Positions 4,435-17,371 of a stretch of DNA of 44,789 nucleotides are shown here, one piece after another. The position numbers and the translations under genes are program-made. Numbering within the stretch: position 1 is the stretch's first letter; each line of letters starts with the position of its first letter. A model generated the notes under the pieces. That model was not told the origin of the DNA, did not search any database, and worked only from the letters and a program-made list of their open reading frames with translations. This DNA is from Vectrevirus PDP21P6, in the sequence record OZ035822.1, one strand, 5' to 3'.

Positions 4435-6342
4435 ATGGCTAAATTAACCAAACCTAATACTGAAGGAATCTTGCATAAGGAAGACTCTTTGTATGAGTAC
4501 CTTGATGCGAGAGAGAGTATAGTTTTAACATCAAAGCCGTTTGGTGCAGTAGGTGATGCTACTACTGATGATACGGAGGTTATAGCTGCTTCACTAAACT
4601 CTCAAAAAGCTGTCACAGTCTCAGACGGTGTATTCTCTAGCTCTGGTATTAATAGTAATTACTGTAACTTAGACGGTAGAGGTAGCGGGGTGCTAAGTCA
4701 CCGTTCCAGTACAGGTAACTACTTAGTATTTAACAATCTACGTGCAGGTCGCTTAAGTAATATTACGGTAGAGAGTAATAAGGCGACTGATGATACTCAG
4801 GGGCAGCAGGTATCTCTTGCTGGTGGCAGTGATGTTACTGTAAGTGACGTTAACTTCTCAAACGTTAAAGGTACTGGTTTCAGTTTAATAGCATACCCTA
4901 ATGGTGCGCAACCTAATGGGCTTATGATTAAAGGCATTCGAGGTAGCTACTCTGGCTATGCTACTAATAAGGCTGCTGGATGCGTACTTGCTGACTCCTC
5001 AGTTAACTCTCTCATAGATAACGTCATTGCTAAGAGCTATCCTCAGTTCGGAGCTGTAGAGCTGAAAGGTACAGCCAGTTATAACATAGTAAGTAATGTT
5101 ATAGGGGCAGATTGCCAGCATGTAACTTACAACGGCACTGAAGGGCCAATAGCTCCTTCTAATAACCTTATCAAGGGGGTGATGGCTAATAACCCTAAGT
5201 ATGCAGCGGTTGTTGCAGGAAAAGGAAGTACGAACTTAATCTCAGACGTGCTCGTAGATTACTCAACTTCTGATGCTAGGCAGGCTCATGGTGTTACCGT
5301 AGAAGGATCTGATAACGTCATAAATAATGTGCTTATGTCAGGATGTGATGGTACTAACTCTTTAGGACAAGGGCAGACTGCTACAATTGCACGCTTTATA
5401 GGTACAGCTAATAACAACTATGCGTCTGTATTTCCTAGCTACAGTGCTACAGGTGTTATTACCTTCGAACCCGGCTCTACCCGTAACTTCGTAGAGGTAA
5501 AGCACCCTGGCAGGAGAAACGACCTTCTCAGTTCTGCTAGTACTATTGACGGTGCAGCTACTATTGACGGCACTAGTAATAGTAACGTAGTGCACGCACC
5601 TGCATTAGGACAGTACATAGGTAGTATGTCAGGTAGGTTCGAATGGCGGATTAAGTCCATGTCACTCCCTTCAGGCGTTCTTACTTCTGCTGATAAGTAC
5701 AGAATGCTTGGAGATGGTGCTGTGTCATTAGCTGTAGGTGGGGGCACTTCTTCTCAAGTTCGCCTATTTACTTCTGATGGTACTTCTCGGACAGTGTCCC
5801 TCACCAACGGTAACGTGCGTCTTTCTACCAGTAGCACAGGCTTTTTGCAGTTAGGCGCTGATGCAATGACCCCAGACAGTACTGGTACATACGCATTAGG
5901 TTCCGCCAGCCGAGCATGGTCTGGCGGTTTTACTCAAGCAGCATTCACTGTTACCTCAGATGCTCGGTGTAAAACAGAACCTCTTACTATCTCAGATGCC
6001 TTACTGGATGCTTGGTCTGAAGTTGACTTTGTGCAGTTTCAGTATTTGGATCGTGTTGAGGAGAAGGGTGCAGACTCAGCTAGATGGCACTTCGGTATCA
6101 TCGCTCAGCGAGCTAAGGAGGCTTTCGAACGTCACGGTATAGATGCACATCGCTATGGCTTCTTGTGCTTCGACAGTTGGGATGATGTATACGAGGAAGA
6201 TGCCGATGGCTCTCGTAAACTGATTACACCAGCAGGTTCCCGCTACGGTATTCGTTACGAGGAAGTGCTGATATTAGAGGCTGCGTTGATGCGGAGGACT
6301 ATTAAGCGTATGCAGGAAGCACTAGCTTCCCTGCCTAAGTAA
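4435..6342 (+). CDS. tailspike 1 (beta-helix depolymerase-like) with C-terminal intramolecular chaperone domain
   Basis: ATG 4435 with AGGAGA RBS; N-terminal GAVGDATTDDT pectate-lyase-like signature; C-terminal SDARCK...HFGIIAQRAKEAF segment resembles peptidase S74 autocleaving chaperone. Confidence 0.8.
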   Translation: MAKLTKPNTEGILHKEDSLYEYLDARESIVLTSKPFGAVGDATTDDTEVIAASLNSQKAVTVSDGVFSSSGINSNYCNLDGRGSGVLSHRSSTGNYLVFNNLRAGRLSNITVESNKATDDTQGQQVSLAGGSDVTVSDVNFSNVKGTGFSLIAYPNGAQPNGLMIKGIRGSYSGYATNKAAGCVLADSSVNSLIDNVIAKSYPQFGAVELKGTASYNIVSNVIGADCQHVTYNGTEGPIAPSNNLIKGVMANNPKYAAVVAGKGSTNLISDVLVDYSTSDARQAHGVTVEGSDNVINNVLMSGCDGTNSLGQGQTATIARFIGTANNNYASVFPSYSATGVITFEPGSTRNFVEVKHPGRRNDLLSSASTIDGAATIDGTSNSNVVHAPALGQYIGSMSGRFEWRIKSMSLPSGVLTSADKYRMLGDGAVSLAVGGGTSSQVRLFTSDGTSRTVSLTNGNVRLSTSSTGFLQLGADAMTPDSTGTYALGSASRAWSGGFTQAAFTVTSDARCKTEPLTISDALLDAWSEVDFVQFQYLDRVEEKGADSARWHFGIIAQRAKEAFERHGIDAHRYGFLCFDSWDDVYEEDADGSRKLITPAGSRYGIRYEEVLILEAALMRRTIKRMQEALASLPK

Positions 6343-6427: not shown

Positions 6428-8224
6428 ATGCTTCAAAGATTAAGCACTGCCTTGGTGCGGTATAAAAGTAAAATGTCAGGTGCAATAGGTCGTATATTGC
6501 AAGAAAGACTAGAAGATACGTTAAATGCAAAAGACTTTGGTGCAAAATGTAATGGAGTGGATGATGATACAATCCCTCTCAACAATGCAGCAACAGCAGC
6601 ACGCCTTAAAGGAGTCAAACTCGTAATAACAGGGTCTTGCCTAACAACTGACACAGTTAACTTTAGAGAGGTACTGCTAGAGGCATCAAGTGCTACATTT
6701 ATTATTAAACACGAGGGTGTTGGTGTTATCTTGGGTGGTAATGCAAGTGTGCACAATAACCCCAAGCAAGAGTTTGGTATGACAGAAAGACTTGTTGGGT
6801 CTGCATCTCTAGACACCCCTGATGTACGTATAATGGGTGCCAAGTGCCAACACATTAGCATAGAGAAGTCTGATTACCTTCAGCTATATGCAGATTCAGA
6901 TGAATCAGTATATGAAAAGGACTACTCTATCGCGTATTCCACTTTTACCTTAAAGTATGTTAAAACAATCAACATACGCGGGATTAATCGTGGTTGGATT
7001 AATGAGAACCAGTTCTTCTTAAATAGAACACATTTTGTGACAATACAAGATGGCAATTACTCTCATAACCACAATAAATTCTTTGGTGGCACTATGGAAG
7101 AGAAAGGTGCTATAGATATACAGAGAGGTCATAATAATCACTTCTTTGGGCTTCGATTCGAAAGAGATGGCTCTAAGCCAGATAGAACACTAGACATCAA
7201 GTTTGGTTCTTATACATGGAATAATTCAATTGAAGCATCGTGGCTTAGCTCTGCTGCATATAGCAACGAACCATATAACCCAAATAATCTTGTCACTGTT
7301 ACAGATTTAGGTAGAGGTAATGCTGTACGCCATATACAAGAAGATTTAACAGATGAGATCCCTTTGCTTTCACTAAGTGGAAAGGCAGACTACATCTCTA
7401 GTACCAACCTAGGTACTGTAAGCCAACCTGTTGTTATAACTAACTTCCCTAATATATATAATATTAGACACCTAGTATCAAGCAAGTTTTCTGTTGTAAG
7501 AAATTTCTACCCTATATGGGAGTCTGGTAATTTAGAGGTAAGGAATGGAGACTTATTCACATTCTGCTCTGATGTACCTATCTTCCGTATGCGTCTATTT
7601 ATATTAGATGCGCAAGGTAATGTAATCACTGAGCAATTAGATGATGATGTATCATTCCCTGGTAGTTCTTGGAATGCACAATTAAGTATGTATACAAATA
7701 CTACCAATATTGATGTTGCTAAAATACGTGTCACTAATAGTTCTCGTATTAAATACATTCGTCTTGTCTTGATGTCTGGTGGTTCATCTCAAGATAGAGT
7801 CTTTGAATATGCAAGAGTGACTGCAAGATACTATAAGTATTCAAGCTCAACACCTCGTAAGAATATGGATGTTGCCTTAACCTCTTGCTCTGCTATTATG
7901 CCTTATAAGGGCGATGCAGAGATGCAATATATTGGTTACGGTCTGCCTGTTGTTAAGATGGAAGATACGACTAAGAAGGTTAATATAACACGTAATAGGT
8001 ATTCTGTTATTAATGTGTCTGGTTCTTCTATTAAGGTAAGGGTTTCAGGTAGTCTTATATCCGCAGACTCTAACGACTTACATCTTGTATATACAGAGGG
8101 TTCCGCTAATAAAATTATACCTATTCAGTCTTTATCGGATGATACTATTACTTTAACTTCTACTGCACCTACTACTATAGTAGCTAATAGCATGGTAGAT
8201 GTAGTTTGTACAAAGCAGGTGTGA
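6428..8224 (+). CDS. tailspike 2 (beta-helix depolymerase-like)
   Basis: ATG 6428 with AGGAGG RBS; N-terminal DFGAKCNGVDDDT pectate-lyase-like signature; 598 aa; no adaptor domain. Confidence 0.75.
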   Translation: MLQRLSTALVRYKSKMSGAIGRILQERLEDTLNAKDFGAKCNGVDDDTIPLNNAATAARLKGVKLVITGSCLTTDTVNFREVLLEASSATFIIKHEGVGVILGGNASVHNNPKQEFGMTERLVGSASLDTPDVRIMGAKCQHISIEKSDYLQLYADSDESVYEKDYSIAYSTFTLKYVKTINIRGINRGWINENQFFLNRTHFVTIQDGNYSHNHNKFFGGTMEEKGAIDIQRGHNNHFFGLRFERDGSKPDRTLDIKFGSYTWNNSIEASWLSSAAYSNEPYNPNNLVTVTDLGRGNAVRHIQEDLTDEIPLLSLSGKADYISSTNLGTVSQPVVITNFPNIYNIRHLVSSKFSVVRNFYPIWESGNLEVRNGDLFTFCSDVPIFRMRLFILDAQGNVITEQLDDDVSFPGSSWNAQLSMYTNTTNIDVAKIRVTNSSRIKYIRLVLMSGGSSQDRVFEYARVTARYYKYSSSTPRKNMDVALTSCSAIMPYKGDAEMQYIGYGLPVVKMEDTTKKVNITRNRYSVINVSGSSIKVRVSGSLISADSNDLHLVYTEGSANKIIPIQSLSDDTITLTSTAPTTIVANSMVDVVCTKQV

Positions 8225-8230
8225 GGTAAT

Positions 8231-8380
8231 ATGCCTTTAATTAAATCAGTTAAGCAAAGTGCTGTACGCCAGAACACAGAAGAACTTATTCAATCAGGAC
8301 GTGACCCTAAGCAAGCCTATGCGATTGCCAAGGATGTACAACGTCGTGCTATGAAGAAACCTTCTGCATCTTCTGCGTAA
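8231..8380 (+). CDS. hypothetical small protein
   Basis: 49-aa ORF, GAGGT RBS 4 nt before ATG 8231, starts 6 nt after tailspike 2 stop. Confidence 0.3.
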   Translation: MPLIKSVKQSAVRQNTEELIQSGRDPKQAYAIAKDVQRRAMKKPSASSA

Positions 8381-8450
8381 GCAGGTTAATATCTTAGTGT
8401 ACACAAGGGCAGACCTAGGTTTGCTCTTAGTGTATTTCAAAGGAGGTAAC

Positions 8451-8570
8451 ATGGGAGTGTTTAGCTTTATGTCAGGTACAACCAGTGATATGCCAAAGGA
8501 AGCATTCAGGAACTTCCTGATTATCGCAGGTGGAATCTTAGTGTTTTCACTAGTGCTGCTCACAAAGTAA
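8451..8570 (+). CDS. hypothetical small membrane protein
   Basis: 39-aa ORF with strong AGGAGGT RBS; C-terminal hydrophobic segment FLIIAGGILVFSLVLL. Confidence 0.3.
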   Translation: MGVFSFMSGTTSDMPKEAFRNFLIIAGGILVFSLVLLTK

Positions 8571-8984
8571 CCAAAGTCAAAATTTTGATATAGGCGTGTG
8601 TCAGCTCTCTCGCCCTCGCCCTCGCCGGGTTGTCCCCATAGGGTGGCCTGAGGGAATCCGTCGGAGACGGGTAGGGCTGATGTACTCCTTGTACTAGCTT
8701 AGTAGTACACAAGGGCAGGCCGTACTAGTTAGCTGGTACAGCCTAGTCTTTGCTCATGTACTAGCAAGGTGGAACGCCAGAGAGCGCCTAGGACGGCCTA
8801 GGGATGGCTTAGTGTTTGACAAGGTGAATGCCTTAGTGAAGCCTCTTAGTGCATTCCTGAGGCTATTCAGGGCCATTCCTGAGCGTTTGACAGGGTGGGC
8901 GTGGGTGGGCTATCTGTTCGTTTCGCTCCACTACGTTACGCTACACTCACCGCGCTCGTGTATCCTTGGTATAAACCTGATGGA

Positions 8985-9095
8985 TAGCTTAGGTTAACCT
9001 TAGTGGACTACCTTAATTAAAGCCTTAGTGCTTCACTTAGTATCAGCTTAGTAGTGTACCTTAGTTGGTCTTAGTGAATAGCCTTAGTGATTGCA
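8985..9095 (+). repeat. periodic array of CTTAGT(G) heptamer motifs
   Basis: about nine CTTAGT/CTTAGTG copies spaced 10-13 bp apart, with more copies scattered from 8393 to 10300; non-coding. Confidence 0.6.
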
Positions 9096-9316
9096 TAGCT
9101 AAAGCTATAAGATGCCAATAGGTCGCGGTCAGTAGACCGCTAAGAAAGAGAATAGTAATAAGATGCAGTAGGAGGGACACCAGAACACGGGACAACCTGG
9201 CCTCTCCTGTCTCTGTATCTATTACTTTCCTTAGTCTCACACGTTAGACAACCTAGGTTTCTCTTAGTAATTGTGACCTGTATCACATAAATAATCTATC
9301 TTAGTGAAACTTAGTG

Positions 9317-9345
9317 TTGACACAGGCAATCAACAGCTATACATT
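9317..9345 (+). promoter_or_regulatory. host sigma70-type early promoter
   Basis: TTGACA, 17-bp spacer, TACATT. Confidence 0.55.
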
Positions 9346-9493
9346 AGCAATCACTGAGGTGGACCTAGCAAGCTGCCTCAGGTTATAAGCAGGAGAATTG
9401 ATGCGTAAGCCATAGCTGGTGGATGTAGTCGCATGAAGGCTTGAGTAAGGGGCCGTTTAATACCTTCTTCCTCTGGAGACAACGCTTATAACA

Positions 9494-9508
9494 CCGCTCT
9501 TTAACAAT
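9494..9508 (+). promoter_or_regulatory. boxA-like antitermination element
   Basis: CCGCTCTTTAACAAT contains the rrn boxA core GCTCTTTAACAA; lies in the early leader. Confidence 0.5.
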
Positions 9509-9566
9509 CTGCTTAGTGTAACCTGTGTATGCCGTGGTTAATTACTTATTGAATGAGGAATTAACT

Positions 9567-9665
9567 ATGAATTACGAAAAACTGTATAAAGCCTATTACT
9601 ATAACGCATTAGTGAGAGGAGAAGAGCCTTTGTCTTTCGCTGAGTTTGTGGAGGCTTTATCATGA
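9567..9665 (+). CDS. hypothetical early protein
   Basis: 32-aa ORF, GAGGAA RBS, stop overlaps next start (ATGA). Confidence 0.3.
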   Translation: MNYEKLYKAYYYNALVRGEEPLSFAEFVEALS

Positions 9666-9847
9666 CACTGAATAGCCGTGAACTATCCGTTCTCTTCACC
9701 TTGTTATGCTATATGATATATAGAAATGAGTCACTCAGTGATGATGAGTTGTCTTTGTATCACCGCTTTCTTAACGATGGTTGGGTGGATACATTAAACC
9801 AGAAACGTGACTTGATGAAGGAGTTAATTAATGATTCAGTTAACTGA
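9662..9847 (+). CDS. hypothetical early protein
   Basis: 61-aa ORF, translationally coupled to the upstream ORF. Confidence 0.45.
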   Translation: MTLNSRELSVLFTLLCYMIYRNESLSDDELSLYHRFLNDGWVDTLNQKRDLMKELINDSVN

Positions 9848-9980
9848 AGACCAATTAAAGCAAATCTTAGTTGATGCGTGGTTTGCTGGTCATGAAACAT
9901 CTCAATACACACCTAACGCTTATGGCGATGCTAACAGATATGCACGTTCTGTATTAAAGGAGGTTAAAGAGGATGCATAA
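9831..9980 (+). CDS. hypothetical early protein
   Basis: 49-aa ORF, AGGAG RBS 7 nt upstream of ATG 9831. Confidence 0.35.
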   Translation: MIQLTEDQLKQILVDAWFAGHETSQYTPNAYGDANRYARSVLKEVKEDA

Positions 9981-10197
9981 ACACGAAATCTTTCTTAATT
10001 CAGGAAGTGAGGCACTCCGATTACTAGAAGATATGGAACAGGCTGGCGTAGCTGCTGACCTCACAACCTTTCTTCTGGACTATGACAGAGATTATTACCG
10101 CGTTACCTTAGTGACTGAGTATGATAACCAAGTCATCACTGAGTACTTAGGTAGTGAAGATTATGATTACGATGAAGTAATCACAACAAATCTCTAA
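9973..10197 (+). CDS. acidic early protein (DNA-mimic/anti-restriction candidate)
   Basis: 74 aa, AGGAGG RBS; strongly acidic, Asp/Glu/Tyr-rich C-terminal half; one of the first genes transcribed. Confidence 0.5.
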   Translation: MHKHEIFLNSGSEALRLLEDMEQAGVAADLTTFLLDYDRDYYRVTLVTEYDNQVITEYLGSEDYDYDEVITTNL

Positions 10198-10204
10198 ATA
10201 ACTG

Positions 10205-10233
10205 TTGACAGCCACGGCATACAAGGTTACATT
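10205..10233 (+). promoter_or_regulatory. host sigma70-type early promoter
   Basis: TTGACA, 17-bp spacer, TACATT; same architecture as 9317. Confidence 0.55.
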
Positions 10234-10264
10234 AAGCATCAAGACGGCGACGTCTTTAAACATC

Positions 10265-10279
10265 CCGCTCTTTAACAAT
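10265..10279 (+). promoter_or_regulatory. boxA-like antitermination element
   Basis: second exact copy of CCGCTCTTTAACAAT, about 30 nt downstream of the 10205 promoter and preceded by hairpin AAGACG-gcga-CGTCTT. Confidence 0.5.
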
Positions 10280-10373
10280 TTGGATAGAAGCTTCTTAGTC
10301 TGGATAGGTTAAACCTAGGAGATTCTCTTGAGTCTCCTAGAATGTAACCTAACTAACTAATGAGGACTAAATC

Positions 10374-10643
10374 ATGCAAACTATCGTTACTAAATACTTC
10401 GCTCCGACTAACACTCGCGGCTCTCGTATCAAGGTGACTAGCTGGCTCGGCTCTAAGACTTACGCTTGGGATTATGCCTTAGATGTGGAAGATAACCACA
10501 ATAAAGCATTCTACCAGTGGTTAGAGGAACAGAATAATGAGATGGCTCGTAAGTATCCTGATACAAAAGACAGTGAGCGGTTTAAGTTGGTGACTAAAGG
10601 TAATATGCCGGATGGCTCTGGCTATGCCTACATCATCAAGTGA
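10374..10643 (+). CDS. hypothetical early protein
   Basis: 89-aa ORF with GAGGA RBS. Confidence 0.55.
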   Translation: MQTIVTKYFAPTNTRGSRIKVTSWLGSKTYAWDYALDVEDNHNKAFYQWLEEQNNEMARKYPDTKDSERFKLVTKGNMPDGSGYAYIIK

Positions 10644-10651
10644 GGTGTAAC

Positions 10652-10765
10652 ATGGAAAAGCAATATAACTTTATCTTTTCAGACGGTGTAACCCTGAAGT
10701 GTTCCCTACGATTCGCACAGATTCGAGAGGAAGTGCTAGGCACTACATACAAACTATTTAGCTGA
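10652..10765 (+). CDS. hypothetical early protein
   Basis: 37-aa ORF with GAGGTG RBS. Confidence 0.3.
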   Translation: MEKQYNFIFSDGVTLKCSLRFAQIREEVLGTTYKLFS

Positions 10766-10841
10766 CACTATAAGAGAAGGCTTAACAAGGCGTTGCTACG
10801 GTAGCGCCTGATTAAACTTTCACTTACTAGGAGTTAAGACT

Positions 10842-11069
10842 ATGGATTTAGATAGCATCATTATGGCATTTGCTCTTATTGGCTTAAGCTGGTGCTCCTA
10901 TCACCTTTACCGTGAGTTCTTATTTGATAAAGCTAAACGCAAACTAAGAAAGGAAGGCGGTAATTACCTTTGTGTAAGAGGTGGGCTTGTAGAATACATT
11001 GCACCTAACGGCACGGAATGCGCCATTAGCAAAGATGCATTTATAGAAACGTGGCATTACATCAAGTAA
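10842..11069 (+). CDS. hypothetical early protein with N-terminal hydrophobic segment
   Basis: 75-aa ORF, AGGAG RBS. Confidence 0.5.
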   Translation: MDLDSIIMAFALIGLSWCSYHLYREFLFDKAKRKLRKEGGNYLCVRGGLVEYIAPNGTECAISKDAFIETWHYIK

Positions 11070-11133
11070 CTAGCCTATAGCCTGCCTGTGTGGGCTATGT
11101 GATATTTACTTATCACTATATAAGGTGACTATT

Positions 11134-12018
11134 ATGACTACTGAAAACATCCTCCTGTCTGTCCGTGAAGCTGCAACCGCTGAGATTAAGCAGCATTTGG
11201 ATAATATCGGCACTTCTTACATCAAAGTTGGCGCTTGTCTGAATGAATTACGCGGTGATTTCGAAGGTCAAAAAGACTTTTTAGCTTATGTAGAATCAGA
11301 GTTCGGCATCAAGAAAGCACAATGCTATAAGCTGATGAGTGTAGCCCGTGTCTTTGAGGGAGATGACCGCTTTAAAGGTGTGGCGATGCGTGTAATGCTG
11401 GCGCTTGTCCCTTTCGCTGATGAAAATATCATCATGGAGAAAGCCGCAGAACTCGCCGCAGAGGGCAAGCTGGACACTAACGCCGTAAACGCCTTGATTG
11501 AGCCTAAGAAAGAGCCAAAGTCTGAGACGGTACAACCCAAGGCTGAGCCTGTAAAACCGCAGGAGAACGCGACTGCGGCCGCAGAATCACAGGAAACGCA
11601 AGCGCCGCAGGAAGTGCCGCCAGCAAGTGAGTCAGATGACGACAAATCAGCACCGTGGGAAGAGGAAAGCAAGCCGGAAGCGCCAAAGGCCGCGCCACTG
11701 GACAACACGGCTAACACTGAAAACGCCGCTATGGCTGGCCTACTGGCACAAATTAAGGCACTGACTGAGCAATTACAGGCAGCTAACGACCGCATCGCCG
11801 CCCTAACCAGCGCACGCGAAAGCAAGAAGGCAGCCGCGCCTATGCTTCCACAGTTTAAATCCTCTTGCTTTTACGCTCGCTTAGGTTTGAGTGCTGAAGA
11901 GGCAACGAAGAAAACTGCTGTTAACAAAGCACGCCGCGAACTGGTTAAACTGGGTTACGGTGAAGGACACGAGGCATGGCCTTTAATCTCTGAGGCAGTA
12001 GAAGAATTGACCAAGTAA
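11134..12018 (+). CDS. hypothetical early protein with acidic/Pro-rich low-complexity linker
   Basis: ATG 11134 with AAGGTG RBS; 294 aa; helical N-domain, central linker, C-terminal predicted coiled coil; no kinase motifs. Confidence 0.6.
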   Translation: MTTENILLSVREAATAEIKQHLDNIGTSYIKVGACLNELRGDFEGQKDFLAYVESEFGIKKAQCYKLMSVARVFEGDDRFKGVAMRVMLALVPFADENIIMEKAAELAAEGKLDTNAVNALIEPKKEPKSETVQPKAEPVKPQENATAAAESQETQAPQEVPPASESDDDKSAPWEEESKPEAPKAAPLDNTANTENAAMAGLLAQIKALTEQLQAANDRIAALTSARESKKAAAPMLPQFKSSCFYARLGLSAEEATKKTAVNKARRELVKLGYGEGHEAWPLISEAVEELTK

Positions 12019-12080
12019 CCTTATCGGTGGCATCTTCTTAGGTGTCACCTATTAAGGTTTCTTTAACGGGAGTACACAAA

Positions 12081-14708
12081 ATGCAGGACTTATACGCTAT
12101 CCAGCTTCAGCTTGAAGAAGAGATGTTTAATGGTGGTATCCGTCGCTTTGAAGCAGACCAACAACGCCAGATTGCATCCGGTAATGAATCCGACACGGCA
12201 TGGAATCGCCGCTTATTGTCTGAGTTAATCGCACCGATGGCGGAAGGTATTCAGGCTTATAAGGAAGAGTATGAAGGCAAGCGCGGTCGTGCACCGCGTG
12301 CATTGGCTTTCATTAACTGCGTAGAAAATGAAGTGGCAGCGTATATCACGATGAAAATCGTAATGGATATGCTTAATAATGATGTGACTTTGCAGGCTAT
12401 AGCCATGAATGTAGCTGACCGCATAGAAGACCAAGTGCGCTTCAGCAAGCTGGAAGGACACGCCGCCAAATACTTTGAGAAAGTTAAGAAGTCACTTAAG
12501 GCAAGTAAGACTAAATCATATCGCCATGCGCACAACGTAGCGGTCGTGGCTGAGAAGTCAGTAGCTGACCGTGACGCTGATTTCTCTCGCTGGGAGGCGT
12601 GGCCTAAAGATACCTTGCTACAAATCGGTATGACCTTGCTAGAAATACTGGAGAATAGCGTATTCTTCAACGGGCAGCCTGTTTTCCTCCGCACCTTGCG
12701 CACTAACGGCGGCAAGCATGGCGTTTACTACTTACAGACTAGCGAACACGTGGGTGAATGGATAACTGCATTTAAAGAGCACGTAGCGCAATTAAGTCCT
12801 GCCTATGCGCCTTGCGTTATTCCTCCTCGTCCGTGGGTTTCTCCGTTTAATGGTGGCTTCCATACCGAGAAGGTGGCGAGTCGTATTCGTCTGGTTAAAG
12901 GAAACCGCGAGCACGTCCGCAAGCTGACCAAAAAGCAAATGCCAGCGGTTTACAAGGCTGTTAACGCTTTGCAGGCGACTAAGTGGCAGGTTAATAAAGA
13001 GGTTTTGCAGGTAGTAGAGGACGTTATCCGTCTCGACCTTGGTTATGGTGTGCCTTCCTTTAAACCACTCATCGACCGTGAGAACAAGCCAGCTAATCCA
13101 GTGCCGTTAGAGTTCCAGCACCTGCGAGGCCGTGAACTTAAAGAGATGCTAACGCCGGAACAATGGCAAGCCTTCATCAACTGGAAAGGCGAATGTACCA
13201 AGCTGTATACCGCTGAAACTAAGCGCGGCAGCAAGTCGGCGGCAACCGTTCGCATGGTCGGGCAGGCCCGTAAATACAGCCAGTTTGACGCAATATACTT
13301 CGTGTATGCACTGGATAGCCGTTCACGCGTTTATGCGCAATCTAGCACGCTCTCGCCGCAATCAAACGACCTAGGCAAGGCGTTACTGCGTTTCACCGAA
13401 GGGCAGCCTCTAAATAACTCTGAGGCGCTTAAGTGGTTTTTGGTGAACGGTGCTAATAACTGGGGTTGGGATAAGAAAACTTTCGACGTCCGCACCGCTA
13501 ACGTGTTAGATGGTGAATTCCAAGACATGTGCCGCGATATTGCAGCCGACCCGCTGACTTTTACTCAATGGGTGAATGCTGACTCCCCTTATGGCTTCCT
13601 TGCATGGTGCTTTGAATATGCGCGTTATCTGGATGCACTGGATGAAGGCACGCAAGACCAATTCATGACGCACCTACCCGTCCATCAAGACGGTAGTTGC
13701 TCTGGTATCCAGCACTATAGCGCGATGTTACGCGATGAAGTAGGTGCGAAAGCAGTAAACCTTAAGCCTTCTGACTCCCCTCAAGATATTTATGGCGCGG
13801 TTGCGCAGGTTGTTATCCAGAAGAATTACGCTTACATGAATGCAGATGATGCAGAGACGTTCACATCTGGAAGCGTCACACTTACAGGTGCAGAACTGCG
13901 TAGCATGGCTAGCGCATGGGATATGATAGGTATCACTCGCGGATTAACCAAAAAGCCGGTAATGACCTTGCCGTATGGCTCTACCCGCTTAACATGCCGT
14001 GAGTCAGTGATTGATTATATTGTTGATTTGGAAGAAAAAGAGGCACAAAGGGCTATTGCAGAAGGGCGGACGGCTAATCCGGTGCACCCTTTTGATAATG
14101 ACCGTAAAGATTATTTAACACCGGGCGCAGCTTATAACTACATGACCGCGTTAATTTGGCCTTCTATCTCTGAGGTTGTTAAAGCACCTATAGTGGCGAT
14201 GAAAATGATTCGCCAACTCGCACGATTCGCAGCTAAAAGAAACGAAGGGTTAGAATATCCCTTGCCTACTGGCTTTATCTTGCAACAAAAGATAATGGCT
14301 ACCGACATGCTACGCGTATCCACTTGCTTGATGGGTGAAATCAAGATGAGTCTACAGATTGAGACTGATGTAGTGGATGAAACGGCAATGATGGGCGCTG
14401 CCGCTCCCAACTTTGTTCACGGGCATGATGCTAGTCATCTCATCCTGACTGTATGTGACCTCGTTGATAAGGGCATTACATCCATCGCAGTCATCCATGA
14501 TTCCTTTGGTACTCATGCAGGCCGTACAGCAGACCTGCGGGATAGCTTAAGGGCAGAAATGGTGAAGATGTATCAAGGTCGTAATGCCCTGCAAAGCCTG
14601 TTAGATGAGCATGAAGAACGCTGGTTAGTAGACACCGGAATCCAAGTGCCAGAGCAAGGAGAATTTGACCTTAACGAAATCTTAGTATCTGACTATTGCT
14701 TCGCATAA
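12081..14708 (+). CDS. single-subunit DNA-directed RNA polymerase (T7/SP6 family)
   Basis: motifs [37 protein letters not shown] and C-terminal ...YCFA; ATG 12081; N-terminus [16 protein letters not shown] resembles SP6-type RNAPs from memory. Confidence 0.95.
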
Positions 14709-14716
14709 TATTAATA

Positions 14717-14747
14717 GGCCATTCCTTCGGGAGTGGCCTTTTCTTTT
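14717..14747 (+). terminator. intrinsic terminator after the RNAP gene (early terminator analog)
   Basis: GGCCATTCC-ttcg-GGAGTGGCC stem-loop followed by TTTTCTTTT. Confidence 0.7.
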
Positions 14748-14781
14748 ACCTACTACCGGTAACATTTCATTAACATAAAGT

Positions 14782-14797
14782 GTCTCACATGTGAGAC
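14782..14797 (+). repeat. 16-bp perfect palindrome GTCTCACATGTGAGAC (copy 1)
   Basis: exact palindrome, 3 bp upstream of promoter 14800. Confidence 0.8.
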
Positions 14798-14799
14798 TT

Positions 14800-14822
14800 A
14801 TTTACCGGACACTATAGGATAG
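14800..14822 (+). promoter_or_regulatory. phage RNAP promoter (variant)
   Basis: ATTTACCGGACACTATAGGATAG, +1 G at 14817. Confidence 0.6.
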
Positions 14823-14963
14823 CCGTCGGAGACGGGAAAGAAAGGGAAGATAAAGGATATAAAAGGAAGTAATAGGTATTAAAGGTTATATAGGTTATCT
14901 AGGAATACCTATTACCTCCTTCCTTCCTCTTATTACTACTTAGAGGAAGGGCAGATCTAGGTT

Positions 14964-14979
14964 GTCTCACATGTGAGAC
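14964..14979 (+). repeat. 16-bp perfect palindrome GTCTCACATGTGAGAC (copy 2)
   Basis: exact palindrome, 5 bp upstream of promoter 14985. Confidence 0.8.
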
Positions 14980-14984
14980 TTCGT

Positions 14985-15007
14985 ATTTACCGGACAGTAT
15001 AGATAAG
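14985..15007 (+). promoter_or_regulatory. phage RNAP promoter (variant)
   Basis: ATTTACCGGACAGTATAGATAAG, +1 G at 15002; upstream of gene 1.1 homolog. Confidence 0.5.
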
Positions 15008-15032
15008 ACTAACTTACTTTGGAGATTTAACC

Positions 15033-15161
15033 ATGCGTAACTTTGAGAAGATGACCCGTAAAGCTAACCGTTTTGACATGGAAGAAGGGCAGAAGAAAGG
15101 CAAGAAGCTGAATAAACCTGTCCGTGACCGTGCATCTAAACGCGCAGCGTGGGAGTTCTAA
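15033..15161 (+). CDS. gene 1.1-like small basic protein
   Basis: 42-aa ORF MRNFEKMTRKANRFDMEEGQKKGKKLNKPVRDRASKRAAWEF, GGAG RBS; same size and position after origin as T7 gp1.1. Confidence 0.55.
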   Translation: MRNFEKMTRKANRFDMEEGQKKGKKLNKPVRDRASKRAAWEF

Positions 15162-15164
15162 GTT

Positions 15165-15383
15165 ATGGCTAAATATAGAATTAAGACATGCTTAAACAGT
15201 CACGGGCACGAGTGCTATGTAGTACAGCGTAAAGTGTTATGTTTCTTATGGGTGACTTGCATGATACCTATTGGGTTCACTGATACTGAAGCAATCTTCG
15301 GTACAGAAGATGATGCATATAGGTTCATTGCCAAGCGCAGAAAAGGTGATTCTTATAGACACAGAATTATTAAGGTAAACTAA
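15165..15383 (+). CDS. hypothetical protein
   Basis: 72-aa ORF with GGAG RBS. Confidence 0.5.
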   Translation: MAKYRIKTCLNSHGHECYVVQRKVLCFLWVTCMIPIGFTDTEAIFGTEDDAYRFIAKRRKGDSYRHRIIKVN

Positions 15384-17371
15384 TGGCTATTATTAATAAC
15401 ATTCCGTGCCCTGCCTGCCAGAAGAATGGACACGATAAATCCGGCAATCATCTTATGATATTTGATGACGGTGCTGGCTACTGTAACCGTGGTCACTTCC
15501 ATGATAATGGCAAGCCTTACTACCATAAGCCCGAAGGTGGCATCGAGATAACAGAGTTACCTATCACTGGCAACATCAAATATACACCTTCTCAGTTTAA
15601 AGAGATGGAGAAGGAAGGGAAGATAAGCGACCCTAAGTTGCGCGCCATCGCACTTGGTGGTATGCGTATGAAAGACCGTTGGGAGGTCATGAATGAGCAA
15701 GAAAGGGCAGAGCAAGAAGCAGAGTGGAAACTTGATGTTGAATGGTTCCTCACGCTTAAGCGTAAGAATCTTGTTTCCCGACACATTCGCGGCGACATTT
15801 GCGCATTGTATGATGTACGTGTCGGACATGATGAAGAGGGTAGAGTCTCACGGCATTACTATCCACGCTTCGAGAAAGGTGAACTAGTAGGCGCTAAGTG
15901 TCGCACATTACCTAAAGACTTTAAGTTTGGTCATTTAGGTAAACTATTTGGTATGCAAGATCTTTTCGGTATGAATACTTTGTCTCACGTGTTAGACAAG
16001 GGAAGACGAAAGGATTGCTTGCTTATTGTGGGTGGGGAACTGGATGCACTAGCAGCGCAGCAGATGCTCCTTGATTCTGCCAAGGGTACTAAGTGGGAAG
16101 GGCAGCCTTACCATGTATGGTCTGTCAATAAGGGTGAATCTTGCCTTGAAGAAATTGTGCAGAACCGTGAGCACATAGCCCAATTCAAGAAGATTATTTG
16201 GGGCTTTGATGGGGATGAGGTAGGACAGAAGCAGAACCAACAAGCGGCTCGCCTGTTTCCCGGCAAATCCTACATCCTTGAATACCCTTCTGGTTGCAAA
16301 GATGCCAACAAGGCATTGATGGCTGGTAAGGCCAAAGAATTTGTGGATGCTTGGTTTAATGCAAAGTCATCTGATGAAGTCTTTGGTAGCCAGATTAAAT
16401 CTATCGCATCTCAAAGGGATAAGCTCAAGGCTGCACGTCCAGAACAAGGGCTGTCATGGCCTTGGCCTAAGCTAAACAAGGTAACGCTGGGTATCCGTAA
16501 GAATCAGCTTATCATTGTAGGTGCAGGCTCTGGTGTGGGTAAGACTGAGTTTCTCCGTGAAGTAGTTAAGCATCTCATTGAAGAACACGGTGAATCTGTA
16601 GGCATCATTTCTACAGAAGACCCGATGGTCAAAGTGTCCCGTGCTTTTATCGGCAAATGGATTGATAAGCGTATTGAGTTACCACCAACCAACGACCCGA
16701 AAGAAGATGGATACCGTGAGGTGTTCGACTATACCGAGGAAGAAGCTAACGCCGCCATTGATTATGTAGCCGATACAGGGAAGCTGTTTGTAGCTGACCT
16801 AGAAGGTGACTACTCGATGGAGAAGGTAGAGCAGACCTGCCTTGAGTTTGAGGCTATGGGTATTTCCAATATCATCATTGATAACTTAACGGGGATTAAA
16901 TTAGATGAGCGTGCTTTTGGTGGGAAGGTTGGTGCACTTGATGAATGCGTCAAGCGGATTGGTACTATCAAAGACCGACACCCAGTTACTATATTCCTTG
17001 TATCACACCTTACACGTCCTCCGGCAAACCGTACCCAACACGAAGAAGGTGGCGAGGTTATCCTTTCTGACTTCCGAGGCTCAGGGGCTATCGGATTCTG
17101 GGCATCTTACGCCTTGGGGATTGAGCGTAACACAAGAGCTGAAACGCTTGATGAAAGAACTACCACGTACATTTCATGTGTCAAAGACCGCGACCAAGGT
17201 ATCTACACCGGAACCAAGATCATGCTTAAGGGTGACATTCAGACCGGACGTTTGAGAGAACCTCAAGCCCGTACTAGGTCATTTGATACAGGCGAAGCAA
17301 GGCAACAAGAAGTGCCTGATTTACCGGACACTATAGAAGAGACTAACTTCGATGAAGAAAGTGAGTTCTGA
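15383..17371 (+). CDS. DNA primase/helicase (T7 gp4-like)
   Basis: N-terminal zinc ribbon CPACQKNGHDKSG...YCNRGHFH, Walker A GAGSGVGKT, acidic C-terminal tail ending ...NFDEESEF. Confidence 0.9.
   Translation: MAIINNIPCPACQKNGHDKSGNHLMIFDDGAGYCNRGHFHDNGKPYYHKPEGGIEITELPITGNIKYTPSQFKEMEKEGKISDPKLRAIALGGMRMKDRWEVMNEQERAEQEAEWKLDVEWFLTLKRKNLVSRHIRGDICALYDVRVGHDEEGRVSRHYYPRFEKGELVGAKCRTLPKDFKFGHLGKLFGMQDLFGMNTLSHVLDKGRRKDCLLIVGGELDALAAQQMLLDSAKGTKWEGQPYHVWSVNKGESCLEEIVQNREHIAQFKKIIWGFDGDEVGQKQNQQAARLFPGKSYILEYPSGCKDANKALMAGKAKEFVDAWFNAKSSDEVFGSQIKSIASQRDKLKAARPEQGLSWPWPKLNKVTLGIRKNQLIIVGAGSGVGKTEFLREVVKHLIEEHGESVGIISTEDPMVKVSRAFIGKWIDKRIELPPTNDPKEDGYREVFDYTEEEANAAIDYVADTGKLFVADLEGDYSMEKVEQTCLEFEAMGISNIIIDNLTGIKLDERAFGGKVGALDECVKRIGTIKDRHPVTIFLVSHLTRPPANRTQHEEGGEVILSDFRGSGAIGFWASYALGIERNTRAETLDERTTTYISCVKDRDQGIYTGTKIMLKGDIQTGRLREPQARTRSFDTGEARQQEVPDLPDTIEETNFDEESEF
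17319..17341 (+). promoter_or_regulatory. phage RNAP promoter embedded in 3' end of primase-helicase gene
   Basis: ATTTACCGGACACTATAGAAGAG, +1 G at 17336. Confidence 0.6.

Follow-up and report, generated by a model that had tools for sequence, protein, structure and literature searches.

The window analysed here is the whole stretch of 44,789 nucleotides (nt) of Vectrevirus PDP21P6 (sequence record OZ035822.1), read 5' to 3' on one strand, and its element of interest is boxA, an RNA signal of the E. coli ribosomal RNA (rrn) operons, of which two copies stand in the early region of this phage. The segment 9200-10500 matches 90 phage records, nearly all of them from phages of Escherichia, Salmonella and Citrobacter that belong to the genera Vectrevirus and Zindervirus, that is, the K1E, K1-5 and SP6 group. 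Window position 9200 is equivalent to nt 598 of K1E, which makes the window a complete genome in circularly permuted form, with its left end near 8600. The physical left end reads tctctcgccctcgccctcgcc..., the "early" region begins at about 9.3 kb of the window, and the segment with the boxA copies and their helix sits 0.7-1.7 kb from that end. In T7-like phages, the part of the genome near the left end is transcribed by host RNA polymerase (RNAP). The features of the region are as follows:

9317-9345, + strand: early promoter P1 (TTGACA-17-TACATT), the best sigma-70 match in 7500-16000, with a predicted start at about 9352
9352-9493, + strand: untranslated P1 leader 5' of boxA-1, without significant structure (z-score, z, of -0.39), a variable module among relatives
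9494-9508, + strand: boxA-1 (core GCTCTTTAACAA at 9496-9507), a consensus match that is unpaired in the global fold
9510-9539, + strand: 5' arm of the long-range helix, beginning 2 nt after boxA-1, recognised by inverted repeat, duplex energy and covariation
9567-10197, + strand: helix payload, four small overlapping early open reading frames (ORFs; 9567-9665, 9662-9847, 9831-9980 and 9973-10197) from the ORF list
10205-10233, + strand: internal early promoter P2 (TTGACA-17-TACATT), with a predicted start at about 10240, just beyond the 3' arm
10210-10238, + strand: 3' arm of the long-range helix, overlapping the last -35 base, the spacer and the -10 hexamer of P2
10241-10256, + strand: GNRA-loop hairpin AAGACG-GCGA-CGUCUU, predicted by folding at the 5' end of P2 transcripts, in a boxB-like position
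10265-10279, + strand: boxA-2 (core 10267-10278), the last boxA of the early region
10289-10368, + strand: long local hairpin with internal loops, 3' of boxA-2, reaching the Shine-Dalgarno region of the gene at 10374, a candidate RNase III site of the T7 R0.3 type
10374-10643, + strand: first gene after boxA-2 (89 aa, phrog_3199), at the ocr position in relatives
12081-14708, + strand: ORF of the phage single-subunit RNAP, the last gene of the putative host-transcribed early unit
14716-14749, + strand: strong intrinsic terminator (10-bp stem, UUCG loop, U tract; z -3.3), which ends the early unit and is the counterpart of T7 TE

A first-pass annotation of this DNA had read a repeated 15-mer as rrn-type boxA elements in the leaders of host-transcribed early operons. 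The 15-mer CCGCTCTTTAACAAT is indeed present as two exact copies, both on the + strand, and the window holds no further copy with up to 3 mismatches. An exact 15-mer repeat is not significant in itself, about 0.9 pairs being expected by chance in 44.8 kb (by arithmetic), and the counts of the 15-mer with up to 3 mismatches and of a 12-mer with up to 2 mismatches are not above chance either, so only a match to the exact consensus carries information. The core GCTCTTTAACAA agrees letter for letter with the leader boxA of E. coli rrnB (NC_000913) and fits the gamma-proteobacterial boxA consensus GYTCTTTAANA (PMC5725501). When both strands of the whole window were searched, this consensus matched only at the two boxA places, against 0.22 matches expected, and a count of two was reached in one of 100 shuffles.

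Each copy lies 3' of a sigma70-type promoter and 5' of early ORFs, as had been proposed. P1 and P2 are the two best sigma-70 matches between 7500 and 16000 (10/12 each), and boxA starts 150 nt (copy 1) and 33 nt (copy 2) past the respective -10 hexamer, the promoters being conserved in relatives and the transcript starts predicted. P1 is found equally far from the genome end in K1E and in other relatives, and both hexamers of P2 are invariant in the alignment of helix arms from 18 relatives described below. All early ORFs downstream of the two copies belong to PHROG families, those of the four payload ORFs being of unknown function, and a Pfam search with four early proteins gave no match. In minimum-free-energy (MFE) and centroid folds boxA is unpaired or nearly so, with one alternative fold of a 47-nt fragment pairing part of boxA-2. 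An Rfam scan of 8400-15200 at E<=10 returned only noise such as microRNA-like hairpins, and no boxA or nut family.

The comparison with early leaders of SP6, K1-5 and relatives that the first-pass annotation had called for was made on 15 genomes: the window, SP6, K1E, K1-5, LL11, PSK8, CrRp3, fTuEco01, PDP21P3, T7 and five IMG/VR contigs. Every SP6-like genome carries boxA in its early region, in two to four copies, and T7 carries one (nt 813). All sites in these genomes lie on the + strand, in an intergenic leader, downstream of a strong TTGACA-type sigma-70 promoter. Two consensus copies fall in the first 7 kb of SP6 and three in that of K1E, and in 200 shuffles such counts never came up. 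Among aligned leaders the boxA core shows no change in one set of 18 and almost none in another of 12, while the flanks diverge or are wholly replaced. The idea of an rrn-type boxA in early leaders transcribed by the host was thus borne out with respect to consensus, strand, position relative to promoters, single-strandedness and invariance despite diverging flanks. No boxA feature is annotated in the GenBank records of SP6, K1E, K1-5, LL11, PSK8, CrRp3, fTuEco01 and T7.

Individual copies and the sequences between them vary among relatives. The P1 leader (9352-9493) is swapped for other sequence or for an extra boxA cassette in PDP21P3, SP6, K1-5 and LL11. In the closest relative, Vectrevirus PDP21P3 (97.9% identity over shared parts), the segment 5619-6700, compared with window 9317-10280, has an extra boxA cassette in place of the unstructured leader of 142 nt (9352-9493). 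Gain and loss affect early cassettes as units bounded by boxA and promoter sequences. Decayed copies of boxA were found at about 2240 in K1E, 1530 in SP6 and 2020 in fTuEco01 (GCTCTTTTAACAA, with one extra T, GATCTTTAACAA and GCCCTTTAACAA), in places where other relatives have an intact copy, which suggests turnover of individual copies.

The most informative feature of the locus had been overlooked in the first-pass annotation, namely a conserved helix that runs from 2 nt after boxA-1 into P2. The 28 nt after boxA-1 are a near-perfect reverse complement of the P2 region some 670 nt downstream, with 9510-9524 facing 10224-10238 and 9526-9537 facing 10212-10223. As RNA, this inverted repeat forms a helix of 29 base pairs (bp) with one bulged G, which encloses the four small ORFs and has a duplex free energy (dG) of -48 kcal/mol (z -7.8 compared with shuffled arms), ranking first among 459 long-range duplexes scanned over the early region. 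The helix is present in both the MFE and the centroid structure of the entire 1029-nt P1 transcript, in which both boxA copies are unpaired. The GNRA hairpin and boxA-2 follow directly after the 3' arm, boxA-2 starting 27 nt after it (0-30 nt in relatives). In all SP6-like genomes a 5' arm begins 1-4 nt after each boxA other than the last, and its partner lies just before the next boxA or in the next promoter.

Covariation was assessed on an alignment of the two concatenated arm regions from 18 distinct relatives. In these sequences 98.7% of the cells of the helix were paired, compared with 25-38% when the partner was slid by 1-3 columns, and five pairs showed compensatory changes, such as U-A to A-U in six sequences; the observed values were not attained in any of 500 column shuffles. 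In one IMG/VR phage the arm pair is for the most part different, and the bulge is kept. A second type of helix, found in SP6, K1E, K1-5, LL11 and others but not in the window, had 98.2% of its cells paired, compensatory changes at four pairs and one paired deletion of a single base. Wobble cells numbered 49 G.U in the sense of the + strand against six A.C, and therefore the pairing takes place in + strand RNA, and not in DNA or antisense RNA. The helix points to an rrn-like processing or chaperone role, besides or instead of simple antitermination.

The sequence around boxA-2 has a structure of its own. The 137-nt P2 leader (fold of 10240-10376) is strongly folded (-44.1 kcal/mol, z -5.0), and the predicted order in P2 transcripts is the GNRA hairpin, a single-stranded boxA-2 and the long local hairpin 10289-10368. 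A search within 1.5 kb found no long-range partner for the sequence after boxA-2 (z -1.6), the best pairing being the local hairpin, and the last boxA is likewise without a long-range partner in every SP6-like relative. The boxA-2 module can be aligned with the region downstream of the T7 boxA (AATCTGG...GGATA). Similarity to relatives ends precisely at the start codon of the gene that follows (10374-10643), which stands at the Ocr position and is not ocr, its product being an 89-aa protein of PHROG 3199 with unknown function.

The boxB-like hairpin that the first-pass annotation had described before the second copy is real (10241-10256, with a GNRA loop) but appears to be optional, none preceding copy 1 and none being found in SP6. 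Alone it is only marginally stable (z -2.1), and relatives that have it show the loop variants GCGA, GAGA and GGGA or a different stem (GCC-GAGA-GGC). Because an equivalent hairpin is missing from SP6-type leaders, as well as from several other relatives, a hairpin before boxA seems to be an optional part, like boxB in rrn, where it is dispensable (PMC10250234, PMC8632103). A candidate boxB-like hairpin before boxA-1 was rejected (z +0.5). The same applies to a candidate boxC. In rrn operons boxC (UCUGUGUGGG) lies 18-19 nt after boxA (PMC10250234); the candidate CCTGTGTATG, 15 nt after boxA-1, matches it at 7/10 positions, and most relatives have CCTATGTA.

The coupling of boxA with a long-range helix extends beyond the SP6-like phages. 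A census of IMG/VR contigs carrying CGCTCTTTAACAAT provided 156 testable sites with the boxA consensus, of which 20 can pair over a long range at -38 kcal/mol or better. Sixteen of these 20 strong cases have an arm that begins 1-4 nt after boxA, mostly with another boxA no more than about 30 nt from the 3' arm; a long-range partner is missing at most other boxA sites, those of T7-like phages included. The 3' arm holds a promoter of the form TTGACA-17/18-TAnnnT in almost every case. From group to group the arms have unrelated sequences, the groups being represented by Pseudomonas phage Nerthus (Colwellvirinae), Vibrio phage Vc1 (NC_047746), Pectobacterium phage PP1, the T5-like phage My1 and T5. 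In My1, a T5-like phage of Pectobacterium, the segment 4250-4951 of the left terminal repeat (pre-early region) shows the boxA-helix layout with dG of -45.6 and -39.1. T5 (NC_005859) has one unit at 4681-5010, on the minus strand, which is the strand of the pre-early genes: a hairpin is followed by boxA GCTCTTTAAAAA at 4988 and by an arm that pairs with 4722-4681 (dG -49, z -15.6), with gene T5.008 enclosed. The T5 and My1 units lie in the first-step-transfer (pre-early) DNA, with a promoter in the 3' arm.

On E. coli rrnB the same script returned a hairpin, boxA and, immediately after it, the 5' strand 429-472, which pairs with 2106-2149 just past 16S (dG -57.9); further downstream it found another hairpin and the spacer boxA, after which comes the 5' strand of the 23S helix. 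These phage units and rrnB share one grammar: a hairpin (optional in the phages), boxA, 5' strand, payload, 3' strand, boxA. Some similarity goes beyond boxA, since the motif AATCTGGAT(C/T)AAGCT is found 3' of the spacer boxA of rrnB (2423-2460) and 3' of the last boxA of some phages (phage locus 7187-7225; window 10267-10300). This shared motif could reflect NusA/SuhB contacts or a common origin.

We consider that both 15-mers are rrn-type boxA RNA elements carried by early transcripts that host RNAP makes from P1 and P2, the first of them being wired to an rrn-like long-range helix, and we put the probability of this reading at about 0.7. The identity, strand, position and conservation of boxA, the helix with its covariation and the rrn-like order of elements are all read directly from the sequence. 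By analogy with the rrn operons, boxA most likely loads Nus factors on host RNAP. Each transcribed copy would be bound by host NusB-NusE(S10), for which the T7 literature offers a precedent, and these proteins, with NusA, NusG and SuhB, would turn RNAP into the fast and Rho-resistant form that is normal for rRNA operons. With RNAP modified in this way, transcription would be safeguarded across the 5.4-kb early unit as far as the phage RNAP gene. In T7-like phages, early transcription by the host enzyme also pulls the genome into the cell.

The long-range helices are probably RNase III processing sites, judging from the 29 bp of near-perfect double-stranded RNA in the helix of this phage. With less certainty, RNase III may cut out the four-gene block, which would then be an mRNA of its own whose ends are paired. 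More speculatively, the Nus complex bound to boxA might keep the 5' strand at the RNA exit channel until the 3' strand emerges ("tether and deliver"), and cleavage might then cut boxA-1 off the nascent chain. A fresh boxA after each helix would make sense under such a scheme, because cleavage would sever the preceding boxA from the nascent chain. As P2 lies within the 3' arm, P2 transcripts would start about where read-through transcripts cut by RNase III start. A wider proposal is that virulent SP6-like podophages and T5-like siphophages, which are unrelated lineages, copied the complete cis-grammar of the rRNA operon, with Nus tethering and delivery, excision of cassettes by RNase III, re-arming of RNAP by the next boxA and sigma-70 promoters in the 3' arms that yield the same downstream RNA; we offer it tentatively, as an idea more apt to fail than to stand.

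Several points weigh against our reading. For this phage, we infer the transcript starts, Nus binding, RNase III cleavage and the effect on read-through. The helix energy alone is not decisive, because chance long-range duplexes in the coding region reach -42.8 kcal/mol. Moreover, the aligned relatives are close kin, and with related sequences a column-shuffle control makes significance look greater than it is; a stronger argument for the helix than the shuffles comes from the slid controls and from the independent arms of distant phages. Between boxA and the RNAP gene there is no obvious rut-like tract with C in excess of G (C exceeds G by at most 11 in 78 nt, and the leaders are not rich in C) and no strong terminator, only one weak terminator-like hairpin at 11076-11099, so that a need for antitermination is not visible in the sequence. 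The coupling of boxA and helix is not obligatory, given that the boxA of T7 and the last boxA of SP6-like phages have no long-range helix. Finally, mutations in the rRNA boxA cut function only 2-3 fold, the helix being essential (PMC10250234), and a role in delivery could be minor.

One alternative, in line with the first-pass annotation, is that boxA acts purely as an antiterminator, which would only make RNAP Rho-resistant and faster, and the helix would then be an independent RNase III or mRNA-stability element that happens to share the leader. This account draws on the last boxA of every SP6-like phage, which manages without a long-range partner, on the T7 boxA, which is reported to be genetically functional and has only a local hairpin after it, and on the fact that boxA alone suffices for the formation of the rrn antitermination complex (PMC10250234). 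It is at odds with the absence of rut-like tracts noted above and, above all, with the geometry: the 5' arm begins 0-4 nt after boxA and a new boxA stands 0-30 nt past the 3' arm across phages of Enterobacteria, Pseudomonas, Vibrio and Pectobacterium, in T5 and in rrnB. A functional link between boxA and helix is favoured because such constant adjacency with unrelated arms is hard to explain otherwise, and we regard the purely antiterminating role as unlikely, if still worth attention. The same strict placement of boxA relative to the helix arms is left unexplained if early transcripts with two to four boxA copies act as decoys that titrate NusB/NusE/SuhB, crippling host rRNA synthesis and ribosome maturation for the sake of host shut-off. 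Several copies per transcript behind strong promoters would suit a decoy, and titration of Nus factors does perturb rRNA (PMC4807359); the infection cycle is nonetheless short compared with ribosome turnover, and the reported phenotype of T7 boxA mutants indicates modified RNAP reading on through the phage genome. We hold a decoy to be very improbable.

Nor is it easy to see boxA as a negative regulator, with bound Nus factors repressing translation of the next gene and promoting Rho termination. Such repression is documented for the suhB leader, where the mechanism involves a boxA near the start codon and a limit of 50 nt was applied in the genome search (PMC5725501), but the distances here are about 60 and 96 nt, behind structured RNA, and it is implausible that a phage would repress the operon that delivers its own RNAP; we give this role hardly any credence. 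The least probable of the alternatives is that the repeat is no RNA signal at all, being instead a DNA-level repeat (a recombination junction of early-gene modules or a protein binding site) or a product of chance. An exact 15-mer repeat arises at random about once in 44.8 kb, as calculated above, and recombination at boxA and promoter repeats probably happens, because relatives differ by whole cassettes bounded by these sequences. Against this stand the strict strand bias, the exact match to the rrn boxA in phages of different hosts, consensus matches far above chance and G.U pairs in the arms that are valid only in + strand RNA.

Other sequence features surround the boxA-helix unit. The heptamer CTTAGTG occurs 20 times in the window (7.6 expected), with 12 + strand copies clustered from the genome left end to P1 (8393-9316); two copies abut the -35 hexamer of P1, one lies inside the 5' arm after boxA-1 (9512) and another is found at 10107. 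Two degenerate promoters for the phage polymerase (10756-10777 and 11100-11123), each abutting a hairpin, stand 5' of the RNAP gene in the early region assigned to host transcription, and 11 good copies of the consensus ATTTACTGGACACTATAGAAGAG are found elsewhere. These degenerate promoters could provide a feed-forward loop for the RNAP gene, whose product is 98% identical to the K1E RNAP region and 85% identical to that of SP6 (tblastn). Between two early ORFs, a long imperfect hairpin (10758-10845; -30.8 kcal/mol, z -4.95) resembles a local RNase III site of the T7 type, and Rfam gave only meaningless microRNA models for it. The loop region CCTGTGTGGGC of the hairpin 11076-11099 matches the rrn boxC UCUGUGUGGG at 9/10 positions, a match that may be a coincidence, and is kept in at least one relative. 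Just past the early terminator lie two copies of the 16-bp palindrome GTCTCACATGTGAGAC, one overlapping the 5' end of a phage promoter (14782-14797) and one ending a few bases upstream of a second one (14964-14979). The two copies flank a purine-rich and then pyrimidine-rich inverted stretch (14820-14940), in a layout that resembles the primary origin region of T7.

The presence of boxA 3' of the T7 early promoters was already known, and a boxA in a T7-type early leader is not new in itself. We found no description of boxA, or of long-range helices linked to it, for SP6-, K1-5- or T5-like phages in the open-access full-text literature, although the original SP6 and K1-5 genome papers may mention boxA copies. 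The conserved cassette of boxA and long-range helix, with the next promoter in the 3' arm, may be new. If the wider proposal made above is true, the cassettes would represent the first non-ribosomal use of "tether and deliver" RNA chaperoning by Nus factors. The role of these factors at rRNA operons is debated, between antitermination and co-transcriptional delivery of leader to trailer, and is hard to test in essential operons present in seven copies. Phage early cassettes of 0.13-0.75 kb with the same layout would then be a small, dispensable and easily mutated test bed for the delivery mechanism. The layout would also explain the several boxA copies of SP6-like phages, one per processing unit, and the modular exchange of early genes. 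In addition, it suggests that phages need host NusB/NusE/SuhB and RNase III for their early expression, a point of relevance to host range and to the engineering of therapeutic K1/K5-type phages.

Among known systems, the nutL and nutR sites of lambda also place boxA on early phage transcripts and recruit host Nus factors, as we infer here. The lambda boxA is a shorter variant, while the copies described here are of the full rrn type. In lambda, boxA is followed by boxB, and the phage N protein is required, bound to boxB (PMC10250234), whereas here the hairpin precedes boxA. A lambda-type nut site was accordingly rejected, given this reversed order and the lack of any recognisable N-like function among the early ORFs. 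The suhB 5' untranslated region (PMC5725501) and the leaders of CRISPR arrays (PMC7665894) also carry a consensus boxA in a host-transcribed leader outside rRNA; as described so far, these boxA elements differ from ours in being single and without an adjoining long-range helix, and the suhB boxA represses.

T7 is a further known system of this kind. The same boxA core (T7 nt 813) follows the host-type early promoters A1-A3 and precedes the gene at the ocr position (T7 gene 0.3), and the alignable AATCTGG...GGATA downstream of boxA-2 is likewise followed by a local hairpin. The corresponding T7 region precedes the R0.3 RNase III site (Dunn and Studier). The T7 boxA has been called an antitermination element, and with mutations in it the phage reportedly no longer needs Gp2, the inhibitor of host RNAP (Savalia 2010, cited in PMC3709561). 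Unlike T7, whose single copy lacks a long-range partner (z -0.3), this phage carries two copies and its relatives up to four, in cassettes bounded by helices.

In overall design the cassettes resemble the rrn operons of E. coli and their antitermination complex (rrnTAC). There, boxB, boxA and boxC stand in the leader, a second set precedes 23S, and the leader-trailer helices of 25-40 bp are substrates of RNase III (PMC10250234). According to the current model, the Nus/SuhB complex holds boxA and the adjacent 5' strand at the RNA exit channel and delivers this strand to the emerging trailer (PMC4807359, PMC10250234, PMC8632103). The phage cassettes differ in their payload, which is a protein-coding block of 0.13-0.75 kb and not rRNA, in having no conserved boxC, in the sigma-70 promoter within the 3' arm and in the local hairpin after the last boxA. 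They share with rrn an identical boxA core, a hairpin just upstream (at copy 2 in this phage), a 5' strand directly after boxA, a 3' strand after the payload and a second boxA after the trailer, and the 29 bp of the phage helix fall within the 25-40 bp of its ribosomal counterparts.

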